Part shown: positions 7,766 to 43,963 of the stretch, piece by piece
Layout of the letters: each line of letters begins with the position of its first letter
Position numbering within the stretch: the stretch's first letter is position 1
Virus record (IMG/VR): IMGVR_UViG_2526164669_000023
Coordinates: 1 to 49,435 of that record
Source: a virus
Lineage: Duplodnaviria > Heunggongvirae > Uroviricota > Caudoviricetes
Reading direction: 5' to 3' (one strand)
DNA: 49,435 bases
Made by a program: the position numbers and the translations under genes
Notes under the pieces: model-generated
What the model was told of the DNA's origin: nothing
Seen by the model: only the letters and a program-made list of their open reading frames with translations
Database searches by the model: none

Positions 7766-8242
7766 TTAAGTTCCAGTTTTTGTGATGTTCTGGCTTTTCC
7801 GTTCAGATTCTAGAGCTTTCAGATACTTACCCACTTTCATTTCCATCGCTGCTATGTAGGCGCGAACATCGTGGTCAACCCAATCTGGTTCTGTAGCATT
7901 TCCAGATAACAGGAAAGCTACAATCGCTCTTATTTCATCAGAGGCTGCTTGATAAAGGTTGTTTATATCTAAAAGTTCACTTTTTGTATCTGAATTGGTG
8001 GGAGTTGGTATGGGGTATTCGTTAAGCCCCCAATGCTCTGGACCAACAACATCAGAAAAGAAACGCCATAATTCTGGAAGTTTATCTTTACTTATAGAGC
8101 CTTTCTTAATCCAGTCATAAATTGATGGTGGTTGGACTTTGAAGTGGCGTGCGACCTCCGCCTTTGATTTGACGGATCCCGATGCGATTTTTTTGTTAAT
8201 GGCCTGCTCTATCGCTCGGCCTAAGTCTTTACCACTAAGCAT
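7766..8242 (-). CDS. racR: Prophage repressor RacR
   Basis: 158-aa ORF; N-terminus MLSGKDLGRAIEQAINKKIASGS (HTH region); divergent from ydaS as in Rac. Confidence 0.85.
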   Translation of the reverse strand: MLSGKDLGRAIEQAINKKIASGSVKSKAEVARHFKVQPPSIYDWIKKGSISKDKLPELWRFFSDVVGPEHWGLNEYPIPTPTNSDTKSELLDINNLYQAASDEIRAIVAFLLSGNATEPDWVDHDVRAYIAAMEMKVGKYLKALESERKSQNITKTGT

Positions 8243-8365
8243 TGCTTAATATTCTCCTATGCGCATTACATTAGGCAATCCCTACCCTTACCGCATTAGG
8301 CACAGCCTATTGACAATTGCGTTAGGCGTCGCCTAATATTTCTGTGTGTTTTTGGAGTTCATTCG
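8243..8365. promoter_or_regulatory. racR-ydaS divergent promoter/operator region
   Basis: Repeated ATTAGGC / GCCTAAT motifs, palindrome TTAGGCGTCGCCTAA, and TTGACA (8310-8315) followed by TAATAT about 18 bp downstream, oriented toward ydaS. Confidence 0.55.
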
Positions 8366-8662
8366 ATGAAAAAAGAGAACTATTCATTCAAGCAAGCTTG
8401 TGCTGTTGTCGGTGGGCAATCAGCAATGGCTAGGCTTTTAGGTGTATCACCTCCAAGCGTAAATCAATGGATCAAAGGGGTACGTCAATTGCCTGCCGAG
8501 AGATGTCCAGCAATTGAACGTGCAACAAGAGGTGAGGTTCTGTGCGAAGAACTTCGTCCTGATATTGACTGGTCATATTTACGACGTTCGGCATGTTGTT
8601 CGCAGAATATGTCAGTGAAGCAACTAAATGACAGTAACAAATCCTCATTTGATCATACCTGA
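8366..8662 (+). CDS. ydaS: Cro-like HTH protein YdaS
   Basis: 98-aa ORF with HTH-like N-terminus; first rightward gene opposite racR. Confidence 0.8.
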   Translation: MKKENYSFKQACAVVGGQSAMARLLGVSPPSVNQWIKGVRQLPAERCPAIERATRGEVLCEELRPDIDWSYLRRSACCSQNMSVKQLNDSNKSSFDHT

Positions 8663-8684
8663 AACATCAAGAGGCAAATGATTC

Positions 8685-9107
8685 ATGAAAATCAAGCATG
8701 AGCACATCGAATCAGTGTTGTTTGCCCTAGCAGCCGAAAAAGGGCAGGCATGGGTAGCCAATGCAATTACTGAAGAATATCTGCGCCAGGGGGGCGGCGA
8801 ATTGCCCCTGGTTCCAGGCAAGGACTGGAACAATCAGCAGAATATCTATCACCGTTGGTTGAAAGGTGAAACGAAAACGCAAAGAGAAAAAATTCAGAAG
8901 CTGATCCCAGCAATTCTGGCAATCCTTCCGCGCGAGCTGCGTCACCGACTCTGCATCTTCGATACCCTGGAACGCCGTGCATTACTGGCGGCGCAGGAAG
9001 CGTTAAGTACGGCAATTGATGCGCATGATGATGCAGTCCAGGCCGTTTACCGGAAAGCGCATTTCAGCGGCGGCGGTTCTTCCGACGATTCTGTCATTGT
9101 TCATTAA
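8685..9107 (+). CDS. ydaT: YdaT (toxic early protein / CII-like position)
   Basis: 140-aa ORF following ydaS; Rac gene order. Confidence 0.75.
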   Translation: MKIKHEHIESVLFALAAEKGQAWVANAITEEYLRQGGGELPLVPGKDWNNQQNIYHRWLKGETKTQREKIQKLIPAILAILPRELRHRLCIFDTLERRALLAAQEALSTAIDAHDDAVQAVYRKAHFSGGGSSDDSVIVH

Positions 9108-9119
9108 GCAAAAGTTTCC

Positions 9120-9977
9120 ATGCTGTTTGTGCTTATTCTAAGCCACCGGGCAGCATCATACGGGGCAATTATGGCCGCATTACCATACATGCAACTGTAC
9201 ATAGCTGATTACCTGGCTGACACCATGCATTTGTCAGCAGAGGAGCATGGTGCGTATTTGTTGCTGATGTTCAATTACTGGCAAACAGGAAAGCCAATAC
9301 CTAAAAACAGGCTGGCAAAAATTGCCCGTCTGACTAACGAGCGATGGGCTGATGTTGAACCATCCTTGCAGGAGTTTTTTTGCGATAACGGCGAGGAATG
9401 GGTGCATCTTCGGATTGAGGAAGATCTGGCATCAGTCAGGGAAAAATTAACCAAAAAATCAGCCGCAGGAAAAGCATCTGTTCAGGCCAGAAGAAGCAGA
9501 AAGGAAGCAGATGTTCAAACAAAACAAGAGAGAAATTTAACAGGTGTTCAAACAGATGTTGAAGTGGTGTTTGAACATGATGTCAACACAAAGGCAACTA
9601 ATAAAGATACAGATAAAGATCTAAAAACAGATCCCCCCCTAAATCCCCCCCGGGGGAATCGAGGTGTTAAAAAGTTTGACCCTCTGGATATTGCTTTGCC
9701 GAACTGGATTTCTGTCTCGCTTTGGCGTGAGTGGGTTGAATTTCGCCAGGCATTGCGTAAACCGATTCGAACGGAGCAGGGCGCTAACGGGGCGATACGG
9801 GAGCTGGAAAAATTCCGCCAGCAGGGTTTTTCACCTGAGCAGGTGATTCGATACAGCATCGCCAATGAATACCAGGGCTTGTTCGCGCCAAAAGGTGTTC
9901 GACCTGAGACGTTACTCCGACAGGTTAACACCGTCTCGTTACCGGATAGTGCGATCCCGCCAGGCTTCAGGGGGTAA
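9120..9977 (+). CDS. ydaU: Replication-initiation-like protein YdaU
   Basis: 285-aa ORF in the lambda O-equivalent position upstream of the DnaC-like gene. Confidence 0.7.
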   Translation: MLFVLILSHRAASYGAIMAALPYMQLYIADYLADTMHLSAEEHGAYLLLMFNYWQTGKPIPKNRLAKIARLTNERWADVEPSLQEFFCDNGEEWVHLRIEEDLASVREKLTKKSAAGKASVQARRSRKEADVQTKQERNLTGVQTDVEVVFEHDVNTKATNKDTDKDLKTDPPLNPPRGNRGVKKFDPLDIALPNWISVSLWREWVEFRQALRKPIRTEQGANGAIRELEKFRQQGFSPEQVIRYSIANEYQGLFAPKGVRPETLLRQVNTVSLPDSAIPPGFRG

Positions 9978-9983
9978 CTGACC

Positions 9984-10718
9984 ATGAAAAATATTGCGGC
10001 AGGCGGCATTCTTGAACGTATCCGCAGACTGGCCCCGCCACATGTAACCGCCCCATTCAAAACGGTAGCGGAGTGGCGCGAGTGGCAACTTTCCGAAGGC
10101 CAGAAACGTTGTGAGGAGATCAACCGTCAGAATCGTCAGTTGCGGGTGGAAAAAATTCTGAACCGCTCTGGCATCCAGCCATTGCACCGCAAATGCTCGT
10201 TTGCGAATTACCAGGTGCAGAACGACGGTCAGCGATACGCGTTGAACCAGGCGAAATCTATCGCTGATGAACTGATGACCGGGTGTACAAATTTTGCGTT
10301 CAGCGGAAAACCTGGTACCGGAAAAAACCATCTGGCGGCGGCTATCGGGAATCGCCTGCTGAAAGATGGCCAGACAGTGATTGTGGTTACCGTGGCTGAT
10401 GTCATGAGTGCTCTACACGCCAGCTATGACGACGGGCAATCAGGCGAAAAATTTTTGCGGGAACTGTGCCAAGTGGATCTGCTGGTTCTTGATGAAATTG
10501 GCATTCAGCGCGAGACAAAAAACGAGCAGGTGGTGCTGCACCAGATTGTTGATCGCCGGACAGCGTCGATGCGCAGCGTGGGGATGCTGACAAACCTGAA
10601 CTATGAGGCCATGAAAACATTGCTCGGCGAGCGGATTATGGATCGCATGACCATGAACGGCGGACGCTGGGTGAATTTTAACTGGGAGAGCTGGCGTTCG
10701 AATGTTGGCTTGCGATGA
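9984..10718 (+). CDS. ydaV: DnaC/IstB-like replication ATPase YdaV
   Basis: 244-aa ORF with Walker A GKPGTGKNHL and Walker B LLVLDEIG; lambda P-equivalent position. Confidence 0.8.
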   Translation: MKNIAAGGILERIRRLAPPHVTAPFKTVAEWREWQLSEGQKRCEEINRQNRQLRVEKILNRSGIQPLHRKCSFANYQVQNDGQRYALNQAKSIADELMTGCTNFAFSGKPGTGKNHLAAAIGNRLLKDGQTVIVVTVADVMSALHASYDDGQSGEKFLRELCQVDLLVLDEIGIQRETKNEQVVLHQIVDRRTASMRSVGMLTNLNYEAMKTLLGERIMDRMTMNGGRWVNFNWESWRSNVGLR

Positions 10719-10826
10719 TTTTTATGAGGAAATAATCGACGAATGAGGGCTAATGTCTGGTCACCCGGTTGACAATTACAAATATTTTATTGACGATGAA
10801 TGGAAAATGCGTGACGATTACAATAT

Positions 10827-11960
10827 ATGACTTGTCAAAGTATAATGAGAGATTGCATGAAGATTAACCATGAGGATTTAATTGATCTTATAAAGGCATC
10901 ACTGGATGCGAATTACAGCGAAGTTCGTAGTGTTAGTAATCGCATTGTTCGCGCAATTAGCGCTCAGGATGCTGACTTAGCAAAGCAAATTAAGTCTATC
11001 ATCCGTAAAAAAGGGGTACCATTACGTAGCTCTGGTTATACGGACAGTTTGCCCTTAGATCCGAAATCAAGGATGCCTTTAGTGGAAGAAGTCGAATGGC
11101 CTGCAACGCCTTTATTTCTTTCTGATGAATCACAGCATATTTTTCATGCTTTTATTCAGAATGTTATCCATCAGAATGAACTTATAGAGAATGGAATTCC
11201 AGGTAAATTGAATTTACTTCTTTCTGGTCCGCCAGGAACAGGTAAGACATTAGTCGCTGGTCATATCGCATCCAAATTAAACAAACCGCTCTATGTTGTT
11301 CGGCTTGACTCTGTTATTTCTTCTCTGTTAGGTGATACAGCGAAGAACCTAAGACAGATTTTTGACTTCGTCCCGACAAAAGATGGTGTGTTATTTCTTG
11401 ATGAAGTAGATGCGGTTGCTAAGCTTCGTGATGACAATCAGGAAGTTGGAGAGTTAAAAAGAGTTGTTAACACATTAATCCAAGGACTGGATTCTCTTGA
11501 TGATTCTGCTATTGTCATTGCTGCAACTAATCATTCGAAGCTATTGGATCCAGCAATTTGGAGACGTTTCCCATATAAAATTAGCTTTGGTTTGCCTGGA
11601 CAAGATGTCAGATGTGCTATGTGGGAACATTTTTTATTTAGAGATGATACGGATTCATTTCTAAGTAAAATGTTATCTATCATATCAACTGGGCTAACAG
11701 GTGCTGATATTGAAAATATCAGTTTATCTGCAAGAAGGCATAGTGTTTTATCTGGCAATGGACTGGATATACCATCTGTTGTTTATGCTATATTGAATAG
11801 CGTTGCAGATAGTACAGCAATTCCTTTTGGTAAGGATATAAATTCGAGTGTTAAGAAAAATTTAGCGAAGGAATTATCTAAGTTTAAATTATCACAGGCA
11901 GATATCGGTAGACTTTTAAATGTGAGCAGGCAAACTATATCAGGTTATTTCAAGGAATAA
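10827..11960 (+). CDS. Classical-clade AAA+ ATPase with C-terminal HTH (candidate defense ATPase, IetA-like)
   Basis: Walker A LLLSGPPGTGKT, Walker B VLFLDEVDA, sensor-1 IAATN, Arg-finger region LDPAIWRRFPY; C-terminal XRE-like HTH LSQADIGRLLNVSRQTISGYF. AT-rich relative to flanks. Alternative start at Met11 (10857). Confidence 0.75.
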   Translation: MTCQSIMRDCMKINHEDLIDLIKASLDANYSEVRSVSNRIVRAISAQDADLAKQIKSIIRKKGVPLRSSGYTDSLPLDPKSRMPLVEEVEWPATPLFLSDESQHIFHAFIQNVIHQNELIENGIPGKLNLLLSGPPGTGKTLVAGHIASKLNKPLYVVRLDSVISSLLGDTAKNLRQIFDFVPTKDGVLFLDEVDAVAKLRDDNQEVGELKRVVNTLIQGLDSLDDSAIVIAATNHSKLLDPAIWRRFPYKISFGLPGQDVRCAMWEHFLFRDDTDSFLSKMLSIISTGLTGADIENISLSARRHSVLSGNGLDIPSVVYAILNSVADSTAIPFGKDINSSVKKNLAKELSKFKLSQADIGRLLNVSRQTISGYFKE

Positions 11961-11962
11961 TT

Positions 11963-12538
11963 ATGGTCAGTGAAAATAAAGCTAAAATTTTAAACCCAAT
12001 AATTACTTTATTGAAGCCACCAACGCCAGAGGCGATTCCTGTTGGAGGGAAAAGTCGTAAAAATATTGTTGATTCACGGTTGAAACAACAGCGTGAAGTT
12101 TTATCCTCAGAGATAGATTCCATATTAAGAACAGAAGGTGAAATAGTTAAACATCGTGGTAAGTATCATATAGTAACAAGTATGTTTGAGGACTCATATG
12201 CACCATCGTTTATACCAGATTCATTATTCTGTCCCAGTGTTGAATGTAAGATAGTTGCACCAGCATACAATGGATATTTAATTGAGGTCAATAGCAATGC
12301 TTTATTGAAGTTGAAAAATAAAATTAATAATGCAAAAGCTATTACTGATCTTGTGGATATTTCAAGGGTTAGAAGTGTTAGTCTTTTTGATTCATCTTGT
12401 ACATTGCGAAATAGTAGCCTTGATTCGCTCTGGAATACAGTTAAGGCTTTGAATACATTTCAATTTAATATGTGGCTTATGCCTTTTTTTGATGAGCTTT
12501 CTAGAGAGTCTGTAGTTTCAACTTTTTTAAATTTTTAA
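11963..12538 (+). CDS. Hypothetical protein, middle gene of ATPase/protease cassette
   Basis: 191-aa ORF starting 3 nt after the ATPase stop; AT-rich; no motif I recognise. Confidence 0.55.
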   Translation: MVSENKAKILNPIITLLKPPTPEAIPVGGKSRKNIVDSRLKQQREVLSSEIDSILRTEGEIVKHRGKYHIVTSMFEDSYAPSFIPDSLFCPSVECKIVAPAYNGYLIEVNSNALLKLKNKINNAKAITDLVDISRVRSVSLFDSSCTLRNSSLDSLWNTVKALNTFQFNMWLMPFFDELSRESVVSTFLNF

Positions 12539-12741
12539 ATGATGGTATCATCGCTTTTGGTTATTCAGATTTTGACATAAAAACTATAAATCAAGATGCT
12601 GCTGTTGGCGGGGATAATATAGTCATAGTTCCACCGTTACTTATTGAAGCGATAAAAAAGTATCGTAAATCAGGTCAAGCATCCGTTACCGTCACTGTAG
12701 AGACTAAAGATAGTTTAAACAGGATACTGAATAGCAGTGCT

Positions 12742-14229
12742 GTGTATCGTATAGATCCTGTATCACCGCTAAACGTAACAGATACTCCTCCTGGTAATGG
12801 GGCTGAACCTGTTCCACCAATATTGGGGGATAAGAAAATGCCAACTGTAGTTGTAATTGATGGTGGGTGTAATGCGAAATCATATTCAAATTTAAATATA
12901 TATAAACTAAATCCGCTAATTCCAGATCATGATGCAGATTGTAAACATGGTAATAAAGTTGTATCGTTGTTATGTCACGGTTATGCTTGGAATAATAATT
13001 TAAACTTACCTAAATTGCAATGTAGCTATATAAGTGCACAGGCTATTGCGAAAAGGGGAGTGTTGAAACAACCAACTCCGGATCAATTTTTAAATTATTT
13101 AAGAATGGTTGCTGACAAAACGTCATCTATCGCCAAGGTCTGGAATCTTTCGTTTAATGAAGACGCTCCTCATTATAACTGTAATGAGATAAGTTATCTG
13201 GGACATAAAATCAGTTTGTTGGCTCGAGAATTTGGTATTCTGCCTGTAATATCTATCGGTAATGTTTCAAAGAACGAAAAACAAAAAAATCTTTGTCCGC
13301 CCGCAGATTGTGAGTCAGGAATTACAGTAAGTGGGAGAACGGCCAATCATGAAGGAATGCCTTCAGATGGCTGTCCTTTAAGTCGGAAAGGCCCTGCTCC
13401 TGCAGGAATGAAAAAACCTGAGTTATCATGGTTTTCTCGAGTTAGGGTGATAGGTGGAACAGTAGATATCGGAACAAGTTTTAGTGCTCCATTAGTTTCA
13501 TCTATTGCTGCTCATACCTTTTCGAATATTAAAAATGCCACTCCTGATTTGGTTAGGGCATTATTGATTAACAGGAGTGAGTTGCTTTCTCATGATGATG
13601 CATTAGGATGGGGGACTCCTTGGGATGGCGATTTACTGCCATGGTATTGTAAAGATGGCAGTGTCACATTAACGTGGATATCTAAGTTAAAGGCTGGGGC
13701 TGCTTATTATTGGAACGATCTTCCATTACCTCCAGAGATGTTAGTTAATGGTAAATTAGTTGGTGAGATATCTCTGACAGCTATACTAAAACCTAAGGTT
13801 TCTGAGTTCGGAAGTGAGAACTATTTTTCGACAAGGCTCCAATGTTCGTTACAGGCAATAAAAGAAATTAACGGAACGCTAAAAACAGAAAGCCTTCTTG
13901 GGTCAATGAAAGAATCTTCTGTTGATGAGCGTAAAGCTAGAAATGAACTTTCTAAATGGAGCCCTATTCGCCATCATGCAGAGTCGTTTAAGAGAAAAGA
14001 TATAACAGGGTGTAAAATTCGGCTTTATGCTAGGATATATGCTAGAGATTTGTATCAGTATGGGTTAAATAACCAACGGGAGCTTGAAGAGCAAGAGGTT
14101 TCCTTTGTTTTAACTTTTAAAAGTGTATCAGGATCGTCCTCAATATATACATCAATGGTTCAGCAACTTGGTGTTTATGTTGAAAGTGCTGTTATAGATA
14201 ATCACATTAACATAGATGTTAATAAGTGA
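12742..14229 (+). CDS. Subtilisin-like serine protease (peptidase S8) with C-terminal extension (IetS-like)
   Basis: D-H-S triad motifs in canonical order: VVVIDGGC, CKHGNKVV, GTSFSAPLVSSIAA; about 250 extra C-terminal residues. Track start is GTG; an ATG (MPTVVVIDGG) lies 32 codons downstream; in-frame stop at 12616. Confidence 0.75.
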   Translation: MYRIDPVSPLNVTDTPPGNGAEPVPPILGDKKMPTVVVIDGGCNAKSYSNLNIYKLNPLIPDHDADCKHGNKVVSLLCHGYAWNNNLNLPKLQCSYISAQAIAKRGVLKQPTPDQFLNYLRMVADKTSSIAKVWNLSFNEDAPHYNCNEISYLGHKISLLAREFGILPVISIGNVSKNEKQKNLCPPADCESGITVSGRTANHEGMPSDGCPLSRKGPAPAGMKKPELSWFSRVRVIGGTVDIGTSFSAPLVSSIAAHTFSNIKNATPDLVRALLINRSELLSHDDALGWGTPWDGDLLPWYCKDGSVTLTWISKLKAGAAYYWNDLPLPPEMLVNGKLVGEISLTAILKPKVSEFGSENYFSTRLQCSLQAIKEINGTLKTESLLGSMKESSVDERKARNELSKWSPIRHHAESFKRKDITGCKIRLYARIYARDLYQYGLNNQRELEEQEVSFVLTFKSVSGSSSIYTSMVQQLGVYVESAVIDNHINIDVNK

Positions 14230-14268
14230 TGTACAGAAACTGATTTATTATTATGTTAATTAATGTAT

Positions 14269-14295
14269 TACCCGCTTCGGCGGGTTTTTGTTTTT
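14269..14295 (+). terminator. Rho-independent terminator after the cargo cassette
   Basis: CCCGC-TTCG-GCGGG hairpin followed by TTTTTGTTTTT. Confidence 0.7.
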
Positions 14296-14419
14296 ATTTT
14301 CAATACGTTTGAAGTTATGGACGATGCCGGAATAGAATCAAAAATACTTAAGTAGCGCGCAGGGAGAAGAGTGATGGACCCCGAAGGGGAAGAGCTATTT
14401 ATCTGGAAGGATTCTGAAG

Positions 14420-14593
14420 ATGAAAATCGAAGAATTGCGTGAAATTTTTAGTGAAAATGGCCTCTATGCTGTGCGCGTTGAGAATGGGAAAGTTGTCTAC
14501 ACAACGTTAATCCCTGATGATCATGTAATTTTATCTATCGAGGCATTCATTGAATACCTTGAAAGGCTCGGTTTCAAGGTGATTCGGGAATGA
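14420..14593 (+). CDS. Small hypothetical ORF (57 aa)
   Basis: Hand-read ORF MKIEELREIFSENGLYAVRVENGKVVYTTLIPDDHV... in the gap between the cassette terminator and the next gene; below track cutoff. Confidence 0.3.
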   Translation: MKIEELREIFSENGLYAVRVENGKVVYTTLIPDDHVILSIEAFIEYLERLGFKVIRE

Positions 14594-14659
14594 GTTATAA
14601 TTCGTAAGCCAGCCTGAACAACTGGCATCTGCTGCACTGCGCCATCGAGAGATTGAGAA

Positions 14660-15259
14660 ATGGCGCATATACAACTGGTCAAACAAACTTCTTCTGGTTT
14701 ACTTCTCCCGGCGACGCCGGAGAGTTGCGATTTTCTGCATCAAATCAAAATAGGTGAGTGGATACACGCAGACTTTAAGCGTGTGCGTAACTACGCATTC
14801 CACAAGCGTTTTTTCAAACTCCTGCAACTGGGATTCGATTACTGGACTCCGGTCGGTGGGGCGATCACGCCTCGCGAACGAGAACTGCTGTCTGGTTTCG
14901 TTGATTACCTGTGCGAATCAGTTGGTCGGGAACACACGCCAGCCCTGAGTGATGCCGCAGAGCAATATCTGAATACAGTTGCGACACGCAGAACCCGGGA
15001 TACGGCATTGCTAAAGTCGTTTGAGGCTTTTCGCGAGTGGGTAACCATTCAGGCTGGATTTTACACCGAACATTTTTATCCGGACGGTAGCCGTGGACGC
15101 CGGGCGAAATCCATCGCTTTTGCGAATATGGACGAAACCGAGTTTCAGCAGGTTTATAAATCTGTACTGAATGTGCTGTGGAACTGGATCCTGTTCCGTA
15201 AATTTTCCTCTCCGGAGGAAGTCGAAAATGTGGTCGCACAGTTACTGGAGTTTGCGTAA
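14660..15259 (+). CDS. Lambdoid NinR-region protein (DUF1367-like)
   Basis: 199-aa ORF; first of three tightly coupled genes ending in Q; family assignment by recall only. Confidence 0.5.
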   Translation: MAHIQLVKQTSSGLLLPATPESCDFLHQIKIGEWIHADFKRVRNYAFHKRFFKLLQLGFDYWTPVGGAITPRERELLSGFVDYLCESVGREHTPALSDAAEQYLNTVATRRTRDTALLKSFEAFREWVTIQAGFYTEHFYPDGSRGRRAKSIAFANMDETEFQQVYKSVLNVLWNWILFRKFSSPEEVENVVAQLLEFA

Positions 15260-15549
15260 TGGTGGATTTACGTAAAGCGGCGCGGGGGCAGATGTGCACC
15301 GTCAGAATTCCTGGCTACTGCAATCACAATCCCGAAACTTCTGTGCTGGCGCATTACCGACTGGCGGGGACGTGCGGAACAGCGACAAAACCACACGATA
15401 TGCAGGCAGCGATTGCCTGTAGATCGTGCCACGATTTAATCGACGGGCGGGTAAAAACCAGTGATTACACCAAAGAAGAATTACGCCTGATGCATGCAGA
15501 AGGTGTTTTTCGCACACAAGAAATCTGGAGAAAGGAGGGATATTTATGA
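15259..15549 (+). CDS. Lambdoid small Cys-rich protein (DUF1364 / YbcO-like)
   Basis: 96-aa ORF with Cys/His pairs (CTVRIPGYCNHN...CRSCHD); start overlaps the previous stop. Confidence 0.5.
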   Translation: MVDLRKAARGQMCTVRIPGYCNHNPETSVLAHYRLAGTCGTATKPHDMQAAIACRSCHDLIDGRVKTSDYTKEELRLMHAEGVFRTQEIWRKEGYL

Positions 15550-16088
15550 TTTACCCAACGAATACAGGAAAAAGCGGAGAACACCTTCGTCTCACTACGC
15601 TGGAAAGTGTCTGGATTCAGGGAAAACTACGTATGTGGGGGCGCTGGTCATATATTGGTGGTGGCAGGTCAGGAAATATGTTCAATCAGTTGTTGGCATC
15701 CAAAAAATTGACGAAAACAGCCATCAATGAAGCCCTGCGCAGAATGAAAAAAGCGGGAATAGAGAAACCTGAGCTGGAAGCGTTTTTGCGAGAGATGATC
15801 AATGGTAAGCAAAAGAGCTGGCTGGCGCATTGTACTGATGCAGAGGCGTTATGTATTGATCGGGTTATAAGTGAGGTGCTGGCAGAACATCCGGGATTGA
15901 TTAGCATCCTCCGACAACGGTATGAGGGGCGAGGAATGAGTAAGAGAAGGATGGCCGGGTTACTAAACGAACAGTATCCAGAGTGGTGTTTTAGCACATG
16001 CGAAAAGCGAATTGCTAATTGGTTGGCTGTTGCTGAGTGTGCGCTATACATTCCCATGCGAGAATCATTTGCTCAAAAAATGGCTTGA
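15546..16088 (+). CDS. Late-gene antitermination protein Q-like
   Basis: 180-aa ORF immediately upstream of a promoter-plus-short-terminated-leader arrangement; position between NinR-type genes and the lysis cassette. Confidence 0.6.
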   Translation: MIYPTNTGKSGEHLRLTTLESVWIQGKLRMWGRWSYIGGGRSGNMFNQLLASKKLTKTAINEALRRMKKAGIEKPELEAFLREMINGKQKSWLAHCTDAEALCIDRVISEVLAEHPGLISILRQRYEGRGMSKRRMAGLLNEQYPEWCFSTCEKRIANWLAVAECALYIPMRESFAQKMA

Positions 16089-16171
16089 TTTCTTACGCAT
16101 AAACTGCTTCAATTCCGATACGCTTCGCAAAGCTGTATCGCGTGGCGAATTAATCGCATGAACTTCACCAG

Positions 16172-16198
16172 AACCCGCCATTGAGCGGGTTTTGTTGT
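16172..16198 (+). terminator. tR'-like intrinsic terminator of the late leader
   Basis: CCCGC-CATTGA-GCGGG hairpin then TTTTGTTGTT, about 85 nt downstream of Q; candidate pR' (TTGATT, 17-bp spacer, TTCAAT) at about 16085-16113. Confidence 0.55.
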
Positions 16199-16541
16199 TA
16201 TGTTTAACCATCTACGGGAGAGCTGGCGCTCTACTGACTGGTATTTTGATAACGAAATCTTAAATATTTTATATTGTGATTGTTAGTTGTCTAAATTTTA
16301 TGTATGTTAAGCGGCACAGGATTCCTCCTGCGACGAAGTTTTAGTGGAATCATTATTTACTTTTCTTATGCCAGCCTTTCCTTGAGGTTGGTTTTTTTAT
16401 ACCTGAAAAAGCAGGTTGGTACGTTAAACTTTATGATGGCTATGCAATTTTAGTTTCTCCTTTCCTGAACCCTATTGACTACATGGAATTTTCTTTGTTA
16501 TGTAAAGCGAGTTAATGTTGTTAAGTTGTTAGAGGATGATT

Positions 16542-17395: not shown

Positions 17396-17471
17396 GGCCC
17401 TTTAGCTCAGTGGTGAGAGCGAGCGACTCATAATCGCCTGGTCGCTGGTTCAAATCCAGCAAGGGCCACCA
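17396..17471 (+). tRNA. tRNA with CAU anticodon (Ile2/Met type, ileZ-like)
   Basis: 76 nt; acceptor GGCCCTT/AAGGGCC, anticodon loop CTCATAA, T-arm GCTGG-TTCAAAT-CCAGC, 3' CCA. Confidence 0.8.
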
Positions 17472-17473
17472 TT

Positions 17474-17550
17474 CCGCCACTAGCTCATCGGGATAGAGCA
17501 TCAACCTTCTAAGTTGATTGTGCGAGGTTCGAGTCCTCGGTGGCGGACCA
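17474..17550 (+). tRNA. tRNA-Arg (anticodon UCU)
   Basis: 77 nt; acceptor CCGCCAC/GTGGCGG, anticodon loop CTTCTAA, T-arm CGAGG-TTCGAGT-CCTCG, 3' CCA. Confidence 0.8.
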
Positions 17551-18034
17551 TTCCATGCAAGTTTAGCTGGCAGCGCTATTAGCTCGGCGTAATAGGGCTA
17601 TTCGTTAGGCTCTGTTAGTTCACCATATTTCGTCAAAACTTTTCTTTTCAACGCTACAGTTAACGTTAATCATTACAAAAACTACTGCTGATGTAAGTCT
17701 TGTGAACTGTTATTTCTGAAGAGCTTACTGTGATTTATTGCGACAACGGAGTTAGCGTACTCCCAATTTGTTCATTTTTATGTTGTTTTTTTTCACAATT
17801 TCCTGTGAGAAATCAGAAGTCTGGATGAAATAATGCAAAATGGCATCTGAATCGATCGCAGTTTGGCATTCGAATCGATCATGATTTGGCATCCATCTCC
17901 GATCACAGTTTGGCATCACAATCGATCACGATTTGGCATACTTCCGATCATTGATTGGCATTCGCCAGTCACTCCGGGAATTAACTCTTTTCACCACAGT
18001 CTCCATTGCCGTGTTTAAACCAGTGGAGACGTCA

Positions 18035-19600
18035 ATGTCCAAAAAGAGAAAATCCAGGAGCACTATGGAAACTTGTTTTAAGATCCTTCAGCTCAAGTTC
18101 GATAAGAAGCTGACTAACCGTTGTATCGGACTGACGTTACACATCAGCGCCTCAACCGTTTTTGAGGTTCTTGCCCGCTTCAAAGCCTCTTCTCTGTCAT
18201 GGCCATTACCTGCTGATATATCCCATGACACGCTGGAGAAACTCATTTTCCCGCCCAAAGACACCTCTGCGTCAGAGCTTGTTATGCCTGACATGCTGTA
18301 CTTCGATACGGAAATGAGAAAACCTGGCGTGACGCGCCAACTGTTGTGGATGGAATACAAGGCACAGGCGGGTGACAAAGCGATGGGATACTCACACTTC
18401 TGCCGTTGCTACCGGAAGTGGAAAAAAACGCGACGCCTCTCCATGCGACAGGAGCATCGTGCTGGCGAAAAGCTCTTTATCGACTTCTGTGGTCCTACGC
18501 TTCCTGTTATTAATCCGGACACCGGAGAGATACGCCGCGTGGCAATCTTCGTGGCTGTAATGGGGGCGTCCAACTATACCTATGTTGAAGCGTGCGAAGG
18601 TCAGGACATGATGTCATGGTTAAATGCCCACAGCCGTTGCCTGACCTTCCTGGGCGGCGTACCGAAGCTGCTCATCCCCGATAACCTCAGAAGCGCAGTG
18701 AAAAAAGCCGATCGCTATGAGCCTGTCATCAACGACAGTTATCAGGCGCTGGCTGAGCACTATGGCACGGTTATTATCCCGGCCCGCCCGCGCAAACCTA
18801 AAGATAAACCAAAAGCAGAAAACGGCGTCCTCATCGTCGAGCGATGGCTTCTTGCCCGCATCCGTAATGAAACCTTCCACACGCTCAGGGCGCTGAATGC
18901 ACGCCTTCGGGAGTTGCTGACGGACATGAATAACCGACCAATGAAGGGATACGGTAATCAAACCCGCGCAGAACGCTTCCGCATGCTGGATGCACCAGCA
19001 CTCTCTCCGCTGCCTCTGGAGCCTTATGAATACACGGAATACAAAGCCGTGAAGGTTGGCCCTGACTACCACGTTGAATATGCCCGTCACTGGTACTCCG
19101 TTCCACACGAACTGGTCGGTCAGCGTCTGTCACTGAAGGTGGGGCAGTCGGTGGTACAGCTCTGGCACAAGGGGCAGTGTGTGGCGCAACATCCGCGCAG
19201 CACACATGAATATAAACACACAACCAATCCGCTTCACATGCCAGAACGCCACCGGCGGCATGGGACATGGACACCGGAACGCCTTATCGAGCAGGGAAAC
19301 CGTACAGGTCCGTCCACAGGCCGGGTGGTTGAATCCATGCTGAAAGCCAAACCCCATCCGGAGCTGGCTTACCGTGCAGTCCTGGGTCTGCTGGCACTTC
19401 AGAAAAAATACGGCCCGGAACGGCTGGAAAAGGCCTGTTACGTTGCCCTGCACTATAACGCCCCGGACAGACGCTTTATCGACAATCTGCTGCGTCATCA
19501 TCGGGATAACGTTGAGCTTCCGTTATCCCGCCAGGGCGAACAACATCCGGCATATGCTTCAGAGCATGAAAACCTGCGTGGTCCTGGCTACTACCACTGA
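18035..19600 (+). CDS. istA: IS21-family transposase IstA
   Basis: 521 aa from MSKKRKSRSTMETCF; N-terminal HTH and DDE-type core; followed by an IstB ATPase. Confidence 0.8.
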   Translation: MSKKRKSRSTMETCFKILQLKFDKKLTNRCIGLTLHISASTVFEVLARFKASSLSWPLPADISHDTLEKLIFPPKDTSASELVMPDMLYFDTEMRKPGVTRQLLWMEYKAQAGDKAMGYSHFCRCYRKWKKTRRLSMRQEHRAGEKLFIDFCGPTLPVINPDTGEIRRVAIFVAVMGASNYTYVEACEGQDMMSWLNAHSRCLTFLGGVPKLLIPDNLRSAVKKADRYEPVINDSYQALAEHYGTVIIPARPRKPKDKPKAENGVLIVERWLLARIRNETFHTLRALNARLRELLTDMNNRPMKGYGNQTRAERFRMLDAPALSPLPLEPYEYTEYKAVKVGPDYHVEYARHWYSVPHELVGQRLSLKVGQSVVQLWHKGQCVAQHPRSTHEYKHTTNPLHMPERHRRHGTWTPERLIEQGNRTGPSTGRVVESMLKAKPHPELAYRAVLGLLALQKKYGPERLEKACYVALHYNAPDRRFIDNLLRHHRDNVELPLSRQGEQHPAYASEHENLRGPGYYH

Positions 19601-19616
19601 CAGAAGGAACAACCGT

Positions 19617-20372
19617 ATGAGTGATAATCTGTTAAACAAACTGACCCAACTGAAACTCCCGGCGATGGCCGGGAGCCTGATACGGCAACGGGAAACGCCT
19701 CAGACTTACGACGAACTGTCGTTCGAGGAAAGGCTGACACTGCTGGTTGATGACGAGCTTCTGAGCAGAGAAAACAGTCGTGTGGCACGGTTGAGAAAAA
19801 ATGCCTGCCTGAAATATCAGGCAACACCGGAAGGGCTGCGTTATCCGGCCTCAAGAGGTCTGCGGGCTGAACAGATGAGGGAACTGCTGAACGGCCACTA
19901 CATAATCCACAGGAAAAACCTACTGATAACCGGTCCGACAGGATGCGGTAAGAGCTGGATAGCCAATGCGCTGGGCGAACAGGCATGTCGACAGAAATAC
20001 AGCGTCCGGTACTGTAGAACCGGGCGATTACTGGAACAGTTGGCTCAGGGACGTGTTGATGGCAGTTGGCTGAAATATCTGAAACAGTTGCAAAAAATAC
20101 AGGTTCTAATCCTGGACGATCTGGGGCTGGAACAGTTAAGTAACGCCCAGTGTAATGACCTTCTGGAGATCACAGAGGATCGTTACGGACAAAGCAGCAC
20201 GATAGTGGTAAGCCAGTTCCCGGTAGATAAATGGCATGGTCTGATGGAGAACCCAACAACAGCAGATGCCATCCTGGACAGACTGGTACATAACTCACAC
20301 AGAGTGGTCCTTCAGGGAGAGTCCCTGAGGAAAAATCCCCCGACAGTGGAAAGCAGCGAAAAAACGAGTTAA
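19617..20372 (+). CDS. istB: IS21-family helper ATPase IstB
   Basis: 251 aa from MSDNLLNKLTQLKLPAMAG; Walker A GPTGCGKSWIANAL, Walker B VLILDDLG. Confidence 0.8.
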   Translation: MSDNLLNKLTQLKLPAMAGSLIRQRETPQTYDELSFEERLTLLVDDELLSRENSRVARLRKNACLKYQATPEGLRYPASRGLRAEQMRELLNGHYIIHRKNLLITGPTGCGKSWIANALGEQACRQKYSVRYCRTGRLLEQLAQGRVDGSWLKYLKQLQKIQVLILDDLGLEQLSNAQCNDLLEITEDRYGQSSTIVVSQFPVDKWHGLMENPTTADAILDRLVHNSHRVVLQGESLRKNPPTVESSEKTS

Positions 20373-21147
20373 AAAGCGGTAGAAAAAGTTAAGTTCCCGG
20401 TTGATCGAATGGATGCGAATCGCTGATCGAACTTCGATGCCAATCCGTGATCGAATAGAGCGGAATACGCAAATAACGTAAATTGTATGCGTATGATACA
20501 TATTTATACATATATTTAAATATGAAAACTAATTAGTTTTTGATGTCATATAAATTATCGGTAATATTACTCCCGACCCGAAAGGCAGCAAGTTTCTGTT
20601 CACAGGGGTGTTACCCGCTGTCTTGCGGGTCATTGCAGGCATCCGTTTAATCATAATGAAGGGCTGTTATCAGTATCAGTGTCATTATTGTGGTTACGGA
20701 GGCCTGCTCTATGTGCAGGTATCGTATAGTGGTTATTACATCAGCCTTAGGTTGGTAATGCCGGTTCGATTCCTGTTCTCCGCAACTTCATTGTTTTTTG
20801 GACAAGTTTTTACAGCACTGGCGGTTTTCGTGAGGAACAGATCTCTTTAATACCTTTATCGTCCCTCATTCTGTAATGGAGATCGGTTACAGACTCAGTG
20901 CTGTATTTTTTATGACACAGAAATGGCGCATTGCCCACGAAAGGAAGCAGGATTTAGCGTGGAGTAACCAGTGATGCGCCATCTCTGTGTCGGAAAACAT
21001 GAATTGGGGCGTTCCTCAGTGCGAGGGTGGTTTATAGAGTCGGTTTAGCGGGAAACCACAGTATCCACGTAAAGTGGAATACTTCGGGAGGCACCCGATG
21101 CCCCAAACCCAATAATCATTATAATATTGTGTCCTTTTATCGTTTTA

Positions 21148-27311: not shown

Positions 27312-28751
27312 TTGATGGCAGAGATCGAGATTACTGGCGGCCTCGGTTCAGCACTGATGCGTATTCTTGAGGCTGAAGAAATTCAGCCGGGAACCGATAT
27401 TGGCTATGAATTGTGTAAGCTGCTGTGGCAATTCCATCCTCTGGGCGGAAAACTTGTCGAAAAACCCATACTGATGGCGATGTGTAAGCCGCGACAGTAT
27501 AACGTGGAGACAGATCCTGACGAGAGGGTTGTGCGGCGTTTCCAGGAGGTATGGGAACGTATGAGGGTCAACGAGAAGATAAAAAATCTGTTTTTTCTGT
27601 CTCGTTGCTACGGTGCTGCAGCGATCGGCGTGGGCACCGACAGTGTTTCATGTCGTGAGCCGCTTCCGACATTCGGGCTGACAGAAGAGGATGTGTATAT
27701 CAACGCGTGGGATCCGTTGAACGCTTCCGGTTCGATGGTGACTGACCAGAACCCAAACAGTCCGTTTTTCCAGGAAGCCAACAAAAGGCTGAAGATTGGC
27801 GGAAAAGACTGGCATCCGTCACGCACACTGAAAATCTTCAACGGCACACCGATTTATCTGGAGTTTCAGAGTTCATCGTTCGGATTCACCGGACGAAGTG
27901 TGTTTCAGCGCGTTCTTTATTCCCTGAAATCCTATATCAACACGATGGAGGCGAATGATCTCGTCAGTCAGAAGGCGGGCGTACTGGTAGCTAAAGTTGT
28001 GCAGTCCGGTTCGAAAATGGACGGGATCATGGCTGCTGCCACGGGGCGTAAAAGGGAAAACGTGAAAGCCGCCAAAAATAAAGGCGTGTTGAGTATTGGA
28101 AAAGACGAAGACGTAAGTTCACTGAACCTGCAAAACATCGACGGGGCGCTGAATACTGCCCGCGACAATATCATTGCTGATATTGCCGCCGGGAGTGACG
28201 TTCCGGCCATTATTATCAAGGAAGAAGCATTCAGTAACGGATTCGGTGAAGGTAAGGAGGACTCGAAAGCCATCAGCCAGTATATCGATGGTGTACGCCA
28301 GCAGATTGAACCTGTGATGGATTATTTCGAACGCCTGGTGCAGTACATCGCCTGGAACGAGGAATTTTATCAGTCGCTGAAAAATGATTACCCGGACATC
28401 ATAACCGAGGACTATAAAACCACGTTTTACCAGTGGCGGCGCGAGTTTACCGCGACGTGGCAGGAGCTGGTGGAGGAGTCGCCGGACAAACGCCGGGAAA
28501 GCGACAGTAAAGTGATTCAACAGGCGATAGCACTTTTCTCTGCCGTGTCGCTACAGGTTGATCCTGAAAACCGTGCCGCCGTCACTGAATGGCTGGCAAG
28601 CCTTGTTAATGCCACGCAGACCTATGGCGAAGCTCCACTCATCATTGATGTGGACGCCCTGGCGAATTATGAACCACCGAAGCAGGAGACGCCTGATGGC
28701 AATTTCCAGCCGGGCGGGGAGGAAGAAGAAACGGATCAGGACGCTGTATGA
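27312..28751 (+). CDS. Portal protein (putative)
   Basis: 479-aa ORF immediately after TerL; acidic C-terminus; assigned by position and size. Confidence 0.5.
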   Translation: MMAEIEITGGLGSALMRILEAEEIQPGTDIGYELCKLLWQFHPLGGKLVEKPILMAMCKPRQYNVETDPDERVVRRFQEVWERMRVNEKIKNLFFLSRCYGAAAIGVGTDSVSCREPLPTFGLTEEDVYINAWDPLNASGSMVTDQNPNSPFFQEANKRLKIGGKDWHPSRTLKIFNGTPIYLEFQSSSFGFTGRSVFQRVLYSLKSYINTMEANDLVSQKAGVLVAKVVQSGSKMDGIMAAATGRKRENVKAAKNKGVLSIGKDEDVSSLNLQNIDGALNTARDNIIADIAAGSDVPAIIIKEEAFSNGFGEGKEDSKAISQYIDGVRQQIEPVMDYFERLVQYIAWNEEFYQSLKNDYPDIITEDYKTTFYQWRREFTATWQELVEESPDKRRESDSKVIQQAIALFSAVSLQVDPENRAAVTEWLASLVNATQTYGEAPLIIDVDALANYEPPKQETPDGNFQPGGEEEETDQDAV

Positions 28752-42802: not shown

Positions 42803-43963
42803 ATGGAAAATTTTGCAAATAAGTTAAAAATACACACAGAGCATGTTGCAAAAATGGGGGTGTTTTGTACAACTGAAGAAACGACAAAACAAGCACTCAT
42901 TATGCCATTACTAGATATTCTTGGTTTTACTCCGTATGATCCAAGAAAAGTCAAAGCTGAGTATAGTGCTGACTTCCCCGGGGTTAAGGCTAATGAACGG
43001 GTTGATTACGCTTTATTTTGTCATGATGTTCCTGTGATGTTCATTGAGGCGAAATCGTTTTCAGAACAAATTGATAATCACTGCCCACAGCTATCAAGAT
43101 ATTTTAATTCAACACCGGAAGTTACTATATCAGCCATTACAAATGGTGTTGAATGGCGTTTTTTTACGGATTTGAAACAAAAAAACATAATGGATTCAAC
43201 GCCGTTTTTAAAAATAAGAATGGATTCTCTAACTCACTCCGATATTACACAATTATTTCGTTTTCGTTATGATAAATTCAAACCAGAGGCTTTACGGACA
43301 CTGGCTGAAGAAAGTGTTTATTTGAATTCATTTACTAAAACAATCAGTTCTAGTCTTCGTGAAGTTGATCTGGAGTTTGTTCGATATGTTGCTAGTCGTT
43401 CAAATATTGAGAGACAACTTAATCAGAGATTTCTTGAGTTCGTGACTCCATTAGTTAAACAGGCCGTTGAGCGCGCTGTTAGCGCAATGGTGGTTTCCGG
43501 GCTATCTACACAACCGGTAGAGCAAACTAAAGAAAATGATGCAACGGATACACAAGTTAATAACGCCATTGTTGATGAAGAAAACCCCAACATAATAACC
43601 ACAGCCAAAGAATTGGAGCTATTTGAAAGGGTAAAACAAATCATACAAACAGAAGATAATATAGAATATAAAGATACTGAGTCATATTTTGGTGTACTAT
43701 TGAATGGTAAAACTAATAGATGGCTGTTAAGATTTTATGATAAAAAATCTTCATTTATAACTTTACCTATTTCGCTTAGTGAAGTTCAGTTGAATGAAAT
43801 AAGACGAGCTCGACTTGATACGGATGGTAAAAGGATACATATAACTAATCCGGAAGATATACTTCGCATATCTGGTTTGATTCTGGATTCATACGAGTAT
43901 GTTAAAAATGATGATAATTTCCGCCGAGGGTCCAGAGCGAGCAGTTTAGAAGAGGTTGAATAA
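42803..43963 (+). CDS. PD-(D/E)xK nuclease-fold protein, HsdR N-terminal-like domain (moron; candidate defense gene)
   Basis: About 386-aa ORF; motif ERVDYALFCHDVPVMFIEAKSF (D...E-A-K); AT-rich, own RBS GGAGGAG, promoter-like AT-rich upstream region with TTGACA at about 42745, own terminator. Confidence 0.65.
   Translation: MENFANKLKIHTEHVAKMGVFCTTEETTKQALIMPLLDILGFTPYDPRKVKAEYSADFPGVKANERVDYALFCHDVPVMFIEAKSFSEQIDNHCPQLSRYFNSTPEVTISAITNGVEWRFFTDLKQKNIMDSTPFLKIRMDSLTHSDITQLFRFRYDKFKPEALRTLAEESVYLNSFTKTISSSLREVDLEFVRYVASRSNIERQLNQRFLEFVTPLVKQAVERAVSAMVVSGLSTQPVEQTKENDATDTQVNNAIVDEENPNIITTAKELELFERVKQIIQTEDNIEYKDTESYFGVLLNGKTNRWLLRFYDKKSSFITLPISLSEVQLNEIRRARLDTDGKRIHITNPEDILRISGLILDSYEYVKNDDNFRRGSRASSLEEVE

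Follow-up and report, generated by a model that had tools for sequence, protein, structure and literature searches.

A one-base break in ietS underlies an apparent third gene in the IetAS locus of a Rac-like Escherichia coli prophage

The 191-codon open reading frame (ORF191) lying between an AAA+ ATPase gene and a serine protease gene in the stretch of viral DNA analysed here (49,435 nt, called the window throughout) is almost certainly a severed piece of the protease gene ietS, whichever cause, an error or a mutation, broke the frame. The locus is a two-gene IetA/IetS defence module on a Rac-like E. coli prophage; it represents an already known system, and the supposed middle component is no new part of it. 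With a single T missing, an ORF finder would see a 495-aa "protease" set apart by a 204-nt "gap" from a 191-aa "gene", and in this manner one homopolymer indel has made a known two-gene defence system look like a three-gene one with an "orphan" protein.

Position, composition and reading frames of the locus

Reading of the ORFs in the window places ORF191 on the + strand, with 191 codons from an ATG at 11963 to a TAA at 12536-12538, and its ATG lies 3 nt beyond the stop codon of the upstream ATPase gene (TAA, 11958-11960). The GC profile is low over 11-14 kb (0.35-0.39) as compared to the flanks (0.45-0.52). The location, the 3-nt spacing and the AT-rich composition given by an earlier note on this DNA were all confirmed by reading of the sequence, and its placement of ORF191 in the same unit as the ATPase also holds, as low GC is common to these two and the protease and ORF191 is translationally coupled to the ATPase gene through what is a normal 3-nt ietA-ietS junction. 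The ietAS genes are located in a low-GC insert between the ydaU/ydaV replication genes and the nin-like genes of a Rac-type prophage, with the following features.

10857..11960, + strand: ietA, encoding the AAA+ ATPase ("antitoxin"/regulator of IetAS); RefSeq start, the longest ORF beginning at 10827; WP_000700156.1
11963..12538, + strand: ORF191, ietS codons 1-191 followed by a premature TAA from the frameshift; identical to WP_096150140.1 residues 1-191
12523..12529, + strand: slippery-heptamer-like T TTT TTA in the ORF191 frame, judged coincidental
12532..12536, + strand: lesion, T5 where all intact alleles have T6 (1-nt deletion), from base-by-base comparison
12535..14229, + strand: remaining ietS codons, 192-755 plus the stop, shifted by -1 against ORF191 and encoding the rest of alpha/beta module 2, the linker, the S8 catalytic domain and the C-terminal beta-sandwich
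12859-12861, 12946-12948 and 13477-13479, + strand: codons of the catalytic residues D300, H329 and S506, to which N434 is added
14270..14295, + strand: intrinsic-terminator-like hairpin with a T-tract closing the ietAS unit, the sole such site in 10600-14500

The frame of the downstream protease is open from 12505 through 14229 and overlaps the end of ORF191 by 34 nt (12505-12538). In that frame, the sequence of the apparent 204-nt gap (12539-12741) is open and coding. The ORF finder begins its 495-aa protease ORF at a GTG (12742), which is ietS codon 261 and, from reading of the sequence, is without a well-placed Shine-Dalgarno sequence. The 69 ietS codons 192-260 hence fall outside both called ORFs. 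Two -1-related open frames that overlap within a T6-AAA-T5 stretch suggest a frameshift inside one gene.

Just past the ietAS terminator, a small ORF on the + strand (14420-14593) marks the right-hand junction of the low-GC insert; it is annotated in RefSeq as an incomplete pseudogene and by another gene call as a 57-aa protein of the "Rem" family (PF27490).

Identification of the two genes as ietA and ietS

The ATPase matches the PADLOC IetA profile with an E value of 5.2e-100 and the NCBIfam IteA_antiphage profile with an E value of 1.3e-88, with residues 8-361 aligned to positions 7-367 of 367, and contains a Pfam AAA domain (E 3.9e-29) with Walker A (GPPGTGKT) and Walker B (LFLDEVD) motifs. 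The 495-aa ORF matches PADLOC IetS profiles over positions ~250-760 (E 1e-58). With the frame restored, the 755-aa protein matches PADLOC IetS with an E value of 1.4e-65 and NCBIfam IteS with an E value of 2.2e-52 (residues 30-736 against positions 22-731 of 747). IetS exhibits a Peptidase_S8 profile match above threshold and a subtilase fold, and the codons of the D300/H329/S506 triad are present, with the ORF of the window copy broken after codon 191. The earlier note had found no assignable motif in ORF191, which stands insofar as a Pfam search with ORF191 matched no family. However, it does not extend to the N-terminal regions of the IetS profiles, since ORF191 matches PADLOC IetS over profile positions 21-166 of 749 (E 2.3e-5) and NCBIfam IteS over positions 21-152 of 747 (E 0.0087), and taken over the IetS profiles together its alignment covers positions ~21-190.

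Bit scores against the NCBIfam profiles are below the equivalog cutoffs, with 297.7 as compared to 510 for IteA and, for the restored IetS, 178.3 as compared to 900 for IteS. Such sub-cutoff scores, as would be given by a divergent subfamily, explain the generic RefSeq names. The E. coli IetA/IetS pair is a divergent subfamily, to which a defence role may be assigned by analogy with other members.

At the C-terminus of IetA (window 11880-11957; LSQADIGRLLNVSRQTISGYF), a weak Pfam HTH_3 match was observed (E 0.004, residues 352-376 of the 377-aa ORF). This suggests that the IetA ATPase may also autoregulate the operon via DNA binding.

A single base separates the window from an intact ietS gene

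A megablast search for the module in complete E. coli genomes found one genome, that of OkiPb01675 (NZ_AP042478.1), and base-by-base comparison revealed that the 49,435-nt window equals NZ_AP042478.1:1643578-1693013 save one base. This sole difference resides in the T-run at 12532-12536, which is T5 in the window and T6 in NZ_AP042478.1. With T6, NZ_AP042478.1 contains one RefSeq CDS of 2,268 nt, which encodes a 755-aa "S8 family serine peptidase" (WP_096150140.1) and spans the region from the ORF191 ATG to the protease stop. ORF191 is identical to residues 1-191 of this protein and has no altered residues at its end. The presence of T5 instead of T6 at codons 191-192 means that the frame stops after residue 191 and that the remainder is found in the -1 frame. 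Three further independent T6 copies, two in NCBI assemblies at 98% nt identity and one on a Logan contig at 99.7%, each contain an intact 755-aa ORF. The identical intact 755-aa protein is encoded on 50 contigs, and other 755-aa alleles are found on 20, 18 and more. The dN/dS of IetS between close alleles was uninformative, with 8 differences in the gene. The proposal of a separate middle component is contradicted by these comparisons, as ORF191 comprises the first 191 ietS codons, which are fused to the rest in all homologous loci examined.

Homologues of the ORF191 region

A total of 277 full-length IetS homologues were obtained at E <= 0.001, and nearly all of the 120 matches listed out of these 277 are 730-769 aa in length with 98-100% query coverage. 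Their sources are Klebsiella, Pectobacterium, Serratia, Yersinia, Pseudomonas, Halomonas, Mesorhizobium and a Bdellovibrionales MAG. In these homologues, the ORF191 region either opens a ~735-768-aa S8 peptidase or lies in a collinear fragment of such a protein. When ORF191 alone was used in a phmmer search against 1.84e9 representatives, 117 matches were returned, all at the target N-terminus, collinear with IetS except for two weak repetitive ones, and none of the 117 had an alternative architecture for this region. Matches shorter than full length occur at all sizes between ~40 and 600 residues in a continuous spread, and blastp aligns them collinearly with IetS, starting at residue ~1; judged from these alignments, they are IetS fragments, as from short metagenome contigs.

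In none of the homologues and related loci examined was a ~190-aa gene found to stand on its own between those of the ATPase and the protease. In the Pectobacterium, P. aeruginosa and Mesorhizobium loci, the AAA gene is directly followed by a 735-757-aa S8 gene, with an ietA-ietS junction that is either a gap of 4-6 nt or an overlap of 11 nt; in the two NCBI assemblies at 98% nt identity, a co-oriented AAA gene likewise precedes the S8 gene. The P. aeruginosa ietAS locus is also prophage-borne and is located beside YdaS/YdaT-like genes. Conservation of ORF191 as a separate ORF alongside the ATPase and the protease, which the earlier note had linked to its proposal, has no example, since the region always constitutes the N-terminal ~190 residues of a ~750-aa protease.

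A word-indexed protein search with ORF191 alone gave zero matches, despite the 117 obtained by exhaustive phmmer, and ORF191 shares a 90% cluster with intact IetS. The empty result is a limit of tool sensitivity and not a sign of orphan status, as short AT-rich-encoded queries can be missed.

Predicted structure of IetS and of its N-terminal region

The AF2 model of intact IetS, based on an alignment with 114 homologues (pLDDT 88, pTM 0.89), starts with an N-terminal arm composed of strands 14-16 and 21-23 and then helix 37-56, with two alpha/beta modules downstream of it. Module 1 (~67-141) is modelled with strands 67-74, 95-101, 104-110 and 136-141 and helices 113-135. Module 2 (~167-266) is modelled with strand 167-172, helix 178-193, strands 213-216 and 219-222, helix 225-237, strand 241-245, helix 249-257 and strand 261-266, the last of which contains the conserved YRIEPV. 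A low-confidence linker (270-293) leads to the S8 domain (295-540), in which D300, H329, N434 and S506 are invariant, and the protein is completed by a C-terminal beta-sandwich (565-740). In the alignment of 114 homologues, the N-terminal region is well conserved, and its invariant residues are P12, P22, G29, M74, P85, G104, E108, R135 and W171.

In this model, the frameshift falls inside helix 178-193, and hence cuts module 2 at a point off the domain boundary. When ORF191 is modelled in isolation, it folds confidently over residues 31-165 (AF2 pLDDT 86.6), while residues 1-30 and strand 167-172 are unstructured; these two elements would seem to depend on parts encoded past the break. The best fold matches of the ORF191 model, which are weak, are subtilase/sedolisin prodomains, namely pro-kumamolisin (1t1e), ProN-Tk-SP (3afg), CspB (4i0w) and PCSK9, with scores of 5.0 for ProN-Tk-SP, 4.8 for fervidolysin, 4.8 for the CspB prodomain, 4.3 for TPP1, 4.1 for the PCSK9 prodomain, 3.8 for POIA1 and 3.6 for the Tk-subtilisin propeptide. 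Foldseek returned nothing significant, and its highest-probability matches were the prosegments of CspB, Tk-SP, subtilisin E and BPN'.

At the sequence level, no Pfam domain, including PF05922 (I9), was found in the N-terminal region of 65 full-length homologues at E values up to 1, and a profile of residues 160-296 gave chance-level matches only, with no propeptides, among PDB sequences at E values up to 10. Assignment of the N-terminal region as an I9 propeptide is unsupported by these sequence methods. A comparison of the two modules by hhalign gave a probability of 0.1, and hence no detectable homology that would indicate their duplication. With the full IetS profile, distant subtilases only and no solved IetS were retrieved from the PDB sequences, and no structural or mechanistic papers on IetAS were found in the literature.

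Based on the predicted fold, the N-terminal ~270 residues of IetS probably serve as a built-in prodomain-like chaperone/inhibitor, or as a handle for control by IetA. The guess of an inhibitor or adaptor made in the earlier note is compatible with such an intact N-terminal region, given its weak prodomain-like predicted fold, but applies to a domain of IetS and not to a separate protein. A Pfam-free N-terminal region whose predicted fold weakly resembles prodomains provides a testable idea for IetA-IetS control.

Origin of the T5 allele and alternative readings

The exact ORF191 sequence is present on one public contig only, AIGW01000029.1 of the E. coli DEC11B draft (GCA_000250135.2), which is identical to the window over 7963-16538. 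In public records, ORF191 is named WP_000253228.1 ("hypothetical protein") and the 3' part EHX04608.1 (ECDEC11B_1533). Two Logan contigs also yield the 495-aa product, and in each of them the frame is broken upstream by another lesion. The contig of SRR096907, an old run, has T6 at the site and an extra T located 13 nt upstream (GTTTC^TAAC; at ~2776-2780 of the contig, which corresponds to ~12519-12520 of the window and is flanked by the same sequence), resulting in a 193-aa singleton ORF, and the SRR29694602 contig has an extra G near the contig end. Since any upstream frame break makes the gene caller pick GTG 12742, the shared 495-aa product is no evidence of a shared allele.

We regard an error in homopolymer length, made in the 2012 draft assembly, as the likeliest cause of the missing T, with a confidence that is somewhat above even and well short of certainty. 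Homopolymer-length differences are a classic error class of draft assemblies of the early 2010s. An error is favoured because the change is one of homopolymer length in an AT-rich, homopolymer-dense stretch (T7 at 12484, T6 at 12523 and T6 at 12532 in the reference), because the T5 allele is a singleton as compared to more than 90 contigs with intact alleles, and because the SRR096907 contig disagrees with the GenBank assembly in showing T6 at the same run. The alternative, to which we attach a lesser yet substantial probability, is that the single-T deletion is genuine and very recent and inactivates ietS in DEC11B, with ORF191 as a functionless truncated product. It opposes only the assignment to an assembly artefact and shares with it that ORF191 is a piece of ietS. 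The presence of the T5 allele in a deposited GenBank assembly is in line with a genuine deletion, as is the lack of any other difference in 49.4 kb, which fits two members of a clone differing by one indel. Moreover, toxin genes of toxin-antitoxin and abortive-infection modules are often hit by inactivating mutations, and the SRR096907 contig is also frameshifted, by a different lesion. This contig suggests an indel-prone region in the reads, and its lesion reflects either error-prone reads of the same strain or an independent lesion. If SRR096907 represents another strain, a second independent frameshift would be at hand, which could point to selection against an active toxin. Were the deletion real, the output would be a truncated 21-kDa fragment and, at most, a core that is misfolded or escapes regulation, and the module would probably be inactive, with the system most likely dead.

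Readings in which ORF191 has a function of its own, or in which the T5 allele still yields full-length IetS, are much less probable. A free-standing 191-aa intermediary of the ATPase and the protease, be it a sensor, an adaptor or an inhibitor in trans, or in a softer version a real split with the N-terminal fragment working in trans, is very unlikely, and from the sequences compared it is largely refuted by comparative data. ORF191 is tightly coupled to ietA, has good coding potential and folds confidently on its own over most of its length; further, subtilisin propeptides work in trans, and PDB 1spb is among the weak fold matches. Against it, no homologous locus has a separate gene, the gene is fused in a genome identical over the window but for that base, ORF191 ends inside a predicted helix of module 2 with codons 192-260 in neither called ORF, and the GTG at 12742 is poorly equipped for initiation. 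Somewhat less improbable, but still a long shot, is that T5 is real and both halves are made, with the 191-residue fragment acting in trans on an internally initiated core; IetS would then be a zymogen whose tandem prodomain-like N-terminal region constitutes the handle by which an IetA AAA+ ring holds or releases the protease. If true, this would be a natural split IetS with its N-terminal region as a detachable regulatory/chaperone module, and would supply the missing IetAS mechanism. Least probable of all is recoding, by a -1 ribosome slip on T TTT TTA or by RNA polymerase slippage on the T-runs, that would let the T5 allele produce a low, tuned amount of full-length IetS. A canonical X XXY YYZ heptamer is indeed found in the correct phase within the 34-nt overlap, and a -1 slip on it restores IetS with the single substitution N189K. 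However, the downstream RNA is without a stimulatory structure (z -0.42), the arrangement is an unconserved singleton, 5-6 T make a short run for transcriptional slippage, and intact T6 alleles, which need no recoding and whose protein a slip would truncate, have the heptamer just as well. A programmed -1 frameshift was hence rejected and the heptamer regarded as coincidental, given the lack of a stimulatory structure and of conservation. The preferred reading remains that of one ietS gene with a broken frame.

Other loci of the prophage

A second low-GC insert (0.35) is present at 42803-43963 (+ strand) within the baseplate/tail-fibre module and encodes a 386-aa protein, which shares with type I restriction R subunits just their nuclease-like N-terminal domain (HSDR_N, E 5e-14) and gave no match with PADLOC. 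A role in defence or exclusion, as for ietAS on the same prophage, may be considered for this gene. The CDS at 27315-28751 (+ strand) is named "anti-CBASS protein Acb1 family protein" in RefSeq; from its position right behind the terminase and a Pfam Phage_portal_3 match (E 2e-14), it probably encodes the portal protein, which makes the Acb1 name doubtful. An IS21-family element (ISSso4 istA/istB; 17933-20373, + strand) is inserted between a tRNA-Ile/tRNA-Arg pair (~17396-17551) and the lysis genes, and this insertion may have disrupted late-gene regulation of the Rac-like prophage.

Comparison with known systems

IetAS is presented in PMC5006074 as first described as a toxin-antitoxin/stability module of the Agrobacterium plasmid pTiC58 (Yamamoto et al. 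2009), and in PMC13069673 as later shown to be anti-phage (Gao et al. 2020). [quoted passage not shown] For a Bacillus IetAS, the mode of action is abortive infection, with the expression of SPbeta yosG as the trigger (bioRxiv 10.1101/2022.08.27.505566). Going by this literature on other members, in the intact system IetA would keep the toxic IetS harmless until a phage protein triggers its toxicity, leading to abortive infection.

The locus in the window resembles IetAS in the content, order and tight coupling of its two genes and in product sizes of ~370 aa and ~750 aa, in the end-to-end matches to the IetA and IetS profiles, in the conserved D/H/S triad and in being carried by a mobile element. 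It differs in that the ietS of the window is broken by a 1-nt deletion, and in that the enterobacterial subfamily is divergent, below the NCBIfam equivalog cutoffs, with defence known for other members. In defence-system surveys, the appropriate entry for the window copy is an IetAS whose ietS is frameshifted or mis-assembled. Another relative is sgiAT (S026/S025) of SGI1, an IetAS homologue whose two genes were shown to work as toxin and antitoxin in E. coli (PMC5006074). It likewise combines an AAA-ATPase antitoxin with a subtilisin-like toxin on an enterobacterial mobile element, the element being SGI1 and not a Rac-like prophage.

A genuine three-gene variant exists in ietHAS (Liu-DS4), which is IetAS with an SNF2 helicase (PMC13069673), and hence extra components do occur in this family. 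However, its extra gene encodes a helicase upstream of ietA and not a small protein between ietA and ietS, and no helicase of this kind is found in the ietAS locus of the window. With respect to the N-terminal region of IetS, the predicted structure is weakly reminiscent of subtilase/sedolisin prodomains (MEROPS I9-type propeptides among them) in placing an alpha/beta ferredoxin-like module N-terminal to the S8 domain with a flexible linker in between. It differs from them in that it has no sequence-level match and in that it would comprise two modules and an arm, over ~270 residues as compared to ~75.
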